Shown here: positions 32,994-33,035 of the stretch, one piece after another
Position numbering within the stretch: position 1 is the stretch's first letter
How the letters are laid out: every line of letters starts with the position of its first letter
Sequence record: PQ471515.1
Source of the DNA: Escherichia phage Turkey3
Direction: 5' to 3' (one strand)
DNA: 64,000 nucleotides
Program-made: the position numbers and the translations under genes
The notes under the pieces: model-generated
What the model was told of the DNA's origin: nothing
Databases searched by the model: none
What the model saw: the letters and a program-made list of their open reading frames with translations, nothing else

Positions 32994-33035
32994 TTGATAT
33001 AGATCAAGAGAAATACCCTGTTCTGACGCTATAAT
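32994..33035 (+). promoter_or_regulatory. FNR-box class II promoter for nrdD-nrdG
   Basis: Perfect TTGAT-N4-ATCAA (32994-33007) centred about 41.5 bp upstream of predicted start; -10 TATAAT 33030-33035; no -35 hexamer. Confidence 0.6.

Follow-up and report, generated by a model that had tools for sequence, protein, structure and literature searches.

A candidate class II FNR-dependent promoter upstream of the anaerobic ribonucleotide reductase operon in Rak2-like jumbo phages

The nrdD-DUF4326-nrdG operon and its surroundings

The 64-kb stretch of DNA analyzed here (hereafter, the window) comes from an Asteriusvirus, a Rak2-like jumbo coliphage. It shares 99.3-99.4% identity with Escherichia phages WPEC3, EC.P1, fEgEco12, and Ecwhy_1 and ~89% with 121Q, PBECO4, and G17; Rak2-like genomes of this genus are ~350-385 kb in size. 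The hosts of Rak2-like kin belong to eight genera of Enterobacterales (Escherichia, Salmonella, Klebsiella, Erwinia, Pectobacterium, Cronobacter, Serratia, and Yersinia). Members of all eight are facultatively anaerobic and possess FNR.

The operon consists of three genes in series on the plus strand. The first, nrdD (33097..34902), encodes a class III ribonucleoside-triphosphate reductase of 601 aa (Pfam NRDD, 5.5e-167, together with Gly_radical). It is followed by a DUF4326 gene inside the operon (34911..35237; Pfam DUF4326, 2.9e-24) and by nrdG (35215..35685; Pfam Fer4_12, 2.6e-53, together with Radical_SAM), which encodes the radical-SAM activase of NrdD. A search of the window for class I ribonucleotide reductase (RNR) genes, whose leaders might have been compared, found none. 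The Shine-Dalgarno sequence AAGGAAAG (33085..33092, plus strand) favors the ATG at 33097 as the start of nrdD over an in-frame ATG at 33070. Annotations differ on this point: the start in WPEC3 is the equivalent of 33070 (610 aa), whereas most other related records use the equivalent of 33097 (601 aa).

Intrinsic terminators were detected by a terminator scan on both sides of the operon, also on the plus strand. The one that ends the upstream gene cluster (32935..32965) has a hairpin, AAAAGCACCC-TAGAG-GGTGCTTTT (32935-32957), with a T-rich tail, and a homologous terminator is annotated in G17 (ARNold-based) and in Salmonella phage Munch. The one that closes the operon (35690..35718; hairpin at 35690-35708) also corresponds to a homologous site annotated as a terminator in G17. 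Thus, nrdD-DUF4326-nrdG is an insulated unit that relies on its own promoter. A 31-aa coding sequence annotated in WPEC3 (record L213, 3307-3402) spans the upstream terminator and enters the FNR box described below; it is probably spurious.

The gene content of the operon varies among relatives. In A4, Yen9-04, ph0011, Munch, and fENko-Kae01, a small GrcA-like gene lies directly 3' of nrdD, inside the nrdD-nrdG operon (L003, 3783-4145; L004, 2168-2530; L217, 2317-2679; L220 and L221, both from 2119), and is labeled in the records as "glycyl radical cofactor" or "pyruvate formate-lyase." This gene is missing from the window and from the phages most closely related to it. The host grcA gene is itself regulated by FNR.

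An exact FNR consensus at class II distance from a -10 hexamer

The leader of nrdD contains the sequence TTGATATAGATCAA (32994..33007, plus strand; dyad center at 33000.5), which as TTGAT-ATAG-ATCAA agrees with the FNR consensus TTGAT-N4-ATCAA in 10 of 10 positions. A 22-bp spacer, reading GAGAAATACCCTGTTCTGACGC, separates it from the -10 hexamer TATAAT (33030..33035, plus strand). This hexamer has no TG extension, scores 6.2 bits, and is the top-scoring -10 in the leader according to an approximate sigma-70 -10 weight matrix. The -35 position (33008..33013, plus strand) is degenerate (GAGAAA/AGAGAA), and a sigma-70 scan of the window returned no -35/-10 promoter pair at the nrdD TATAAT. Based on the usual spacing between -10 and +1, transcription is predicted to start at T33042, G33043, or G33044 (33042..33044, plus strand). 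A start at 33042, seven bases past the -10, would put the FNR center at -41.5; starts at 33043 and 33044 would put it at -42.5 and -43.5, respectively. The original prediction, made from the same stretch, had called the box an exact FNR consensus, placed its center at -41.5 from the predicted start in a class II arrangement, seen no -35 hexamer, and assigned the promoter to a phage nrdD-nrdG operon. At the level of sequence, all of this was borne out, the last point by the consecutive Pfam matches to NRDD, DUF4326, and NrdG. The locus has the sequence features of a class II promoter, namely a consensus dyad, a spacing of ~22 bp, a recognizable -10, a poor -35, and a conserved site with diverged flanks.

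The exact FNR 14-mer occurs twice in the window, compared to 0.22-0.24 expected occurrences. The second palindrome, TTGATAAAAATCAA (5592-5605), is located inside an open reading frame (5375-6064), has no -10 at 21-23 bp, and is probably there by chance. When one mismatch was allowed, 10 boxes were seen versus 9.3 expected; thus, the FNR box is not a general motif of this phage. By chance, a box followed at 21-23 bp by TATAAT would arise 0.0017 times per window (both strands); this composite was seen once, directly 5' of nrdD.

Another intergenic region (20058-20170), upstream of a gene encoding a 174-aa protein, contains a terminator hairpin, an FNR-like box with 9 of 10 matches, TTGCTGCATATCAA (20092-20105), and a direct repeat, TTGATCaaaaaTTGATC. 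We considered the box at 20092 as a functional site and rejected it: it has no -10 at 21-23 bp and was treated as a chance match.

Conservation of the FNR box in related jumbo phages

We compared nrdD leaders from Asteriusvirus genomes (G17, JNE01, A4, EJP2, ph0011, SD-2_S15, WPEC3, CMSTMSU, and TH47), from Mimasvirus (XbC2, CBB, and GAP32) and Eneladusvirus (Yen9-04 and Serratia phage BF), from two records without a genus assignment (Salmonella phage Munch and Klebsiella phage fENko-Kae01), and from four uncultured IMG/VR contigs, which gave a non-redundant total of 16. Information content per column was calculated from a gapless alignment of 13 of these leaders anchored on the FNR box, and the three further genomes were compared separately.

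The pattern TTGAT-N4-(A/G)TCAA precedes nrdD in all 16 leaders, starting 90-104 nt before the ATG. In the 13-leader alignment, the information content per column is 2.0 bits for TTGAT and 1.82 bits for (A/G)TCAA, compared to 0.6-1.0 bits for the flanks, and the three further genomes agree with the conserved half-sites. In other words, the flanks have drifted to near-random sequence while the half-sites TTGAT and TCAA remained invariant (16/16), and the invariant bases, TTGA(T) and TCAA, are the core of FNR recognition. The drift is clearest in EJP2, which gives the best footprint of the set and whose spacers are only ~20-23% identical to those of the window (by-eye count) and which nevertheless keeps the box, TATAAT at offset 22, and a downstream TAAATAA element, considered below, at offset 43. 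In a survey of IMG/VR, the box was present within -140..-40 in 9 of 9 jumbo phage loci, against a background of 0.018 per such interval. The second half-site is ATCAA in the window, CMSTMSU, TH47, and most non-Asteriusvirus phages, and GTCAA in WPEC3 (99.4% identical to the window), G17, JNE01, A4, and EJP2. As the closest relative, WPEC3, has GTCAA, selection does not act on the full 10/10 match as such.

The -10-like hexamer is more variable than the box. All Asteriusvirus leaders have TATAAT at offset 22 after the box. In the other leaders, the hexamer that scores highest or close to highest with the weight matrix is found at offset 23: TGaTATAAT in L131, L135, L149, Munch, and fENko-Kae01; TATTAT in CBB and Serratia phage BF; and TATTTT in XbC2 and GAP32. 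At the same offset, L143 (TTTTTT) and Yen9-04 (TTGAAT) have no credible -10. Thus, 14 of the 16 leaders, which have a hexamer with T-12, A-11, and T-7 at offset 22-23, fit the class II spacing, with the FNR center at -41.5 or -42.5.

The five leaders with TGaTATAAT represent sister clades in which a complete promoter, GGGACA-17-TGaTATAAT, adjoins the FNR box. Such a promoter could fire without FNR, in which case FNR would modulate nrdD in those phages and not switch it on and off. The sister-clade nrdD promoters correspond to the general promoter of the phage clade with an FNR box placed directly upstream. The general promoter, GGGACa-N13/14-TGATATAAT, has an extended -10 with a GGGACA-like -35. 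Its -10 part, TGATATAAT, was found 13 times in the window versus 2.5 expected, 12 times on the coding strand, usually with GGGAC 14 nt upstream; the plus-strand sites are at 3952, 10872, 13095, 15102, 18529, 22056, 27445, 35370, 47724, 51126, 59238, and 62847, of which the copy at 35370 lies inside nrdG. Unlike the general promoter, the nrdD promoter of the window has GAGAAA in place of GGGACA and CGCTATAAT without TG. GAGAAA looks like a decayed form of GGGACA, the -35-like element found right next to the FNR box in the sister clades, and the window promoter as a whole looks like a general phage promoter with a decayed -35 and a lost TG. With both of these elements eroded, it would depend more on an activator.

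Recurrence in unrelated phages

The same arrangement was found upstream of nrdD in phages outside the Rak2-like group. Antha, a 145-kb phage whose NrdD is 61% identical, has TTGACTAAGATCAA followed by 22 bp and TAAAAT. The same box, TTGACTAAGATCAA, followed by 22 bp and TGgTATAAT, was found in a 128-kb Vibrio-phage-like contig (L153), and another locus (L142) has TTGATCCTGAACAA, 21 bp, and TAAAAT. In the T5-like Escherichia phage EPS7 (L218), TTGACCCAGATCAA is followed by 22 bp and TATTGT, ~100 nt upstream of nrdD; phages of the T5 group may thus also place nrdD under FNR. EPS7 also has a consensus TTGACA-17-TATAAT promoter ~27 nt past the FNR box. No FNR box was found at nrdD in the T4-like, rV5-like, and Felix-O1-like phages that we examined; in rV5-like phages, nrdD sits inside an nrdB-grx operon.

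Candidate regulator and proposed mechanism

Several observations bear on which protein would recognize the box. A tblastn search of 50,697 phage records with E. coli FNR, using a query sequence entered by hand, retrieved no FNR/CRP homolog other than a hit to one small Listeria record, which makes a phage-encoded regulator of the FNR/CRP type unlikely. The half-sites contain TTGA rather than GTGA, and the box is therefore a poorer site for CRP. DNA of fEgEco12 (99.3% identical to the window) was cut as predicted by 10 restriction enzymes (PMC13070987); thus, it is not hypermodified, and host factors should be able to reach it. Host RNA polymerase is required by PA5oct, a related jumbo phage (PMC7318152). 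On the other hand, Rak2-like phages encode their own sigma factors (PMC5259590), and if a phage sigma replaced sigma-70 early in infection, activation via sigma region 4 might not apply. Taken together, the lack of a phage FNR homolog in these records and the normal restriction of the DNA make host FNR, acting as a class II activator, the best reading.

We propose, with a probability of roughly 0.7, that nrdD-DUF4326-nrdG is driven by a class II FNR-dependent sigma-70 promoter that is switched on without oxygen. FNR binding, the start site, and oxygen dependence are here inferred from the features of the leader. Under anoxic conditions, the host [4Fe-4S] FNR dimer would bind TTGATATAGATCAA (32994-33007) and, from about -41.5, recruit host RNA polymerase to the -35-less TATAAT, so that transcription would start near 33042-33044. 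In the presence of oxygen, with FNR in its monomeric form, the glycyl-radical reductase, which is oxygen-sensitive, and its activase would be made poorly or not at all.

A second invariant element and alternative explanations

The leader contains a second invariant element, which was absent from the original prediction: TAAATAA(c)TTCACC, which reads TAAATAACTTCACC in the window (33051..33064, plus strand; TAAATAA at 33051-33057). TAAATAA equals the box in conservation, with 1.94 bits per column, and starts exactly 43 nt past the end of the FNR box in 16 of 16 leaders, despite the fact that the sequence in between is nearly saturated with substitutions, that the -10 offset shifts from 22 to 23, and that 26 to 40 nt separate TAAATAA from the ATG. 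Candidate roles are a core promoter of the late or class I type and a leader element at +9..+15. TAAATAAnTTCACC and TAAATAACTTCACC are each unique in the 64-kb window. Because TAAATAAnTTCACC is present in a single copy and TAAATAA is under-represented (14 seen versus 38 expected), the element was rejected as a general motif. RNAalifold applied to 13 leaders revealed no conserved hairpin around TAAATAA (-0.33 kcal/mol, three trivial pairs), and an Rfam E-value scan of 32700-33300 returned only sub-threshold noise. We also rejected TAAATAA as a sigma-70 -10, an extended -10, a site for ArcA, Fur, DnaA, PurR, IHF, or CRP, an upstream ORF stop, and an anti-Shine-Dalgarno sequence, all of which were inconsistent across clades (by eye). 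A pattern scan of IMG/VR for box-N43-TAAATA produced, among the matches listed, mostly chance occurrences; of these matches, only L016 was a true relative.

The element resembles the late promoter of the clade, ATAAATA, described in CBB and GAP32 (PMC5259590). The criterion that we used for a late promoter was ATAAATA (in T4, TATAAATA) located 30-60 nt before the start codon of a late or structural gene. The TAAATA core lies 46 nt before the nrdD ATG and shares the core of the late promoter, but its leading base in the 16 leaders is T, G, or C and never A, and nrdD is not structural. A late-type motif with the leading A, ATAAATAca, is present elsewhere in the window (35722-35730), 39 nt before a gene encoding an 898-aa protein (35762-38458). 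It is kept before this gene in G17, JNE01, A4, and Yersinia phage Yen9-04 and matches the late motif of CBB and GAP32 (PMC5259590).

These observations lead to the alternative that survives best, in which the FNR box is real but the core is TAAATAA (33051-33057) instead of, or in addition to, TATAAT. FNR would then act as a class I activator at about -62.5 through contact with alpha-CTD, on polymerase with either sigma-70 or a phage gp55-like late sigma, and TATAAT would be a second, clade-specific core. The rigid spacing fits this alternative, since 43 nt equals 22 plus 21, placing TAAATAA two helical turns past the class II position and the FNR dimer in a class I position, at about -62.5 from the TAAATA core. 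A similar distance is seen in the K-12 sequence of host nrdDG, where 45 nt separate the end of the upstream FNR box from the likely -10, TAAAAT. Moreover, TAAATAA is invariant even in L143 and Yen9-04, which have no usable -10 at offset 23; thus, the downstream core may be the one that selection preserves, and TAAATA is the core of the clade late promoter ATAAATA(ca) (PMC5259590). However, TAAATA scores ~0 bits as a sigma-70 -10 because of the A at -7, the A of the late consensus is missing in front of it, and nrdD is neither a late nor a structural gene. In the window, TATAAT is found at the exact class II distance and should dominate by the rules of E. coli promoters, and all unrelated phages with the box use the class II spacing of 21-22 bp. 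On balance, we regard a TAAATAA core with FNR at a class I position as unlikely.

A combination of the two arrangements, in which one FNR dimer serves tandem cores two helical turns apart (TATAAT in class II at -41.5, and TAAATAA in class I at about -62.5 with a phage late-type sigma), appears more doubtful still. If true, it would mean that the oxygen sensor gates the reductase through both the host-sigma and the phage-sigma phases of infection, and it would be the first host CRP/FNR-family activator driving a phage-sigma-dependent promoter.

It is also conceivable, although improbable, that the palindrome is bound by a phage regulator or by another host protein, or that FNR represses or fine-tunes an essentially constitutive promoter. 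The full GGGACA-17-TGATATAAT promoter beside the box in the sister clades, which is of the general phage type, is compatible with this explanation, as is the fact that most genes of Rak2-like phages are of unknown function. The box itself argues otherwise, as a 10/10 FNR consensus that makes a poorer CRP site, and tblastn revealed no FNR/CRP-family protein in phage records. The box is present only at nrdD and is not a general motif, and NrdD is the one product that is useless in air. In E. coli, binding of FNR at about -41.5 leads to activation, not to repression.

Finally, a chance palindrome in AT-rich intergenic DNA without a regulatory role, a notion to which the apparently accidental match at 5592 and the chance rate of boxes with up to one mismatch lend some color, has next to no probability: a composite with a -10 expected 0.0017 times per window, half-sites invariant in 16 diverged leaders, and a design that recurs in unrelated phages speak against it, and the conservation data effectively refute it.

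Relation to known FNR promoters and to host-factor sites in phages

The proposed class II promoter has close counterparts in the host. In E. coli, class II promoters with FNR near -41.5 include dmsA, narG, nirB, and the synthetic promoter FF(-41.5). Like these, the phage promoter has a TTGAT-N4-ATCAA dyad 22 bp from a -10 and a poor -35 that is abutted or replaced by the box. Unlike these, it belongs to a virulent jumbo phage, would drive a phage operon, and has the additional TAAATAA at +9..+15. Its box is also a perfect consensus, which is unusual among natural FNR sites.

Zeng and Chisholm in 2012 and Sullivan et al. in 2010 reportedly found PhoB boxes at pstS/phoA and NtcA sites in virulent cyanophages. 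The phage nrdD promoter is similar to these cases in that a metabolic gene of a lytic phage would be tied to a host global sensor through a site for a host factor. It differs from them in the regulator (FNR, responding to oxygen), the hosts (Enterobacterales and Vibrio), the phage lineages, and the class of gene. As proposed, the promoter would be a class II FNR promoter and, more broadly, a site for a host global regulator on a phage metabolic operon.

In the literature on FNR, nrdD, phages, jumbo phages, Asteriusvirus, Rak2, and phAPEC6, no description of a phage nrdD promoter with an FNR site came to light, and the genome papers of CBB and fEgEco12 do not mention an FNR site at nrdD. FNR, NrdR, and promoters go unmentioned in a survey of phage RNRs, which calls for studies of RNR expression under different conditions (PMC3653736); an FNR promoter at phage nrdD would answer this call in part. 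If the proposed mechanism is true, virulent jumbo phages that infect Enterobacterales, and apparently several groups unrelated to them, express their anaerobic RNR via the oxygen sensor of the host and not constitutively, so that the enzyme is produced only where it can function. It would also add to the cyanophage PhoB/NtcA examples a further case of a host transcription-factor site that governs a metabolic operon of a phage. Phage gene expression and fitness would then depend on oxygen and on fnr, which bears on phage therapy in the anoxic gut.

Comparison with the control of host nrdDG

The host nrdDG operon is FNR-dependent and is repressed by NrdR through NrdR boxes (PMC2892513, PMC3458845). 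In the region upstream of E. coli K-12 nrdD, we found the FNR sites TTGAGctacATCAA and TTGATgcaaAGCAC, with centers 31 bp apart, and two NrdR boxes, GCACTATATATAGACT and ACCCAATATGTTGTAT. Boston and Atlung in 2003 and Roca et al. in 2008 are said to have placed the host FNR sites at -64.5 and -33.5, an architecture that the 31-bp distance in the K-12 sequence fits.

The original prediction held that the phage promoter mirrors the control of host nrdDG. With respect to logic, the parallel stands: phage and host share nrdD and nrdG, and in both FNR would turn the class III reductase on anaerobically. With respect to architecture, it does not, as the host has two FNR sites and NrdR boxes and the phage has neither the pair of sites nor the boxes. 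No second FNR site was found at a 31-bp spacing in the phage promoter within three mismatches. A scan of the window promoter for NrdR boxes, using an idealized consensus and an architecture of two 16-bp boxes 31-32 bp apart overlapping the core promoter, found none; the same scan recovered both host boxes, at three and five mismatches. Without an NrdR box, the phage operon would escape repression by dATP/NrdR, and this apparent loss would uncouple the dNTP supply of the phage from the dATP feedback of the host. Judging by sequence, the phage nrdD promoter is not a captured host promoter; no suggestive similarity between the two was seen.

One palindrome with GC-rich arms, present in Mimas- and Eneladus-type leaders, came within five mismatches of an NrdR box. 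We rejected it as such, because it has an odd symmetry, a T-tail, and no partner box, and read it as an upstream terminator. In these leaders, the terminator hairpin of the upstream gene (ACCCC-N7-GGGGT plus a T-tail) is located between the FNR box and the -10, and in L008, L016, L132-L134, L137, L143, and L005 its T-tail doubles as the -10-like hexamer, an unusually compact overlap.
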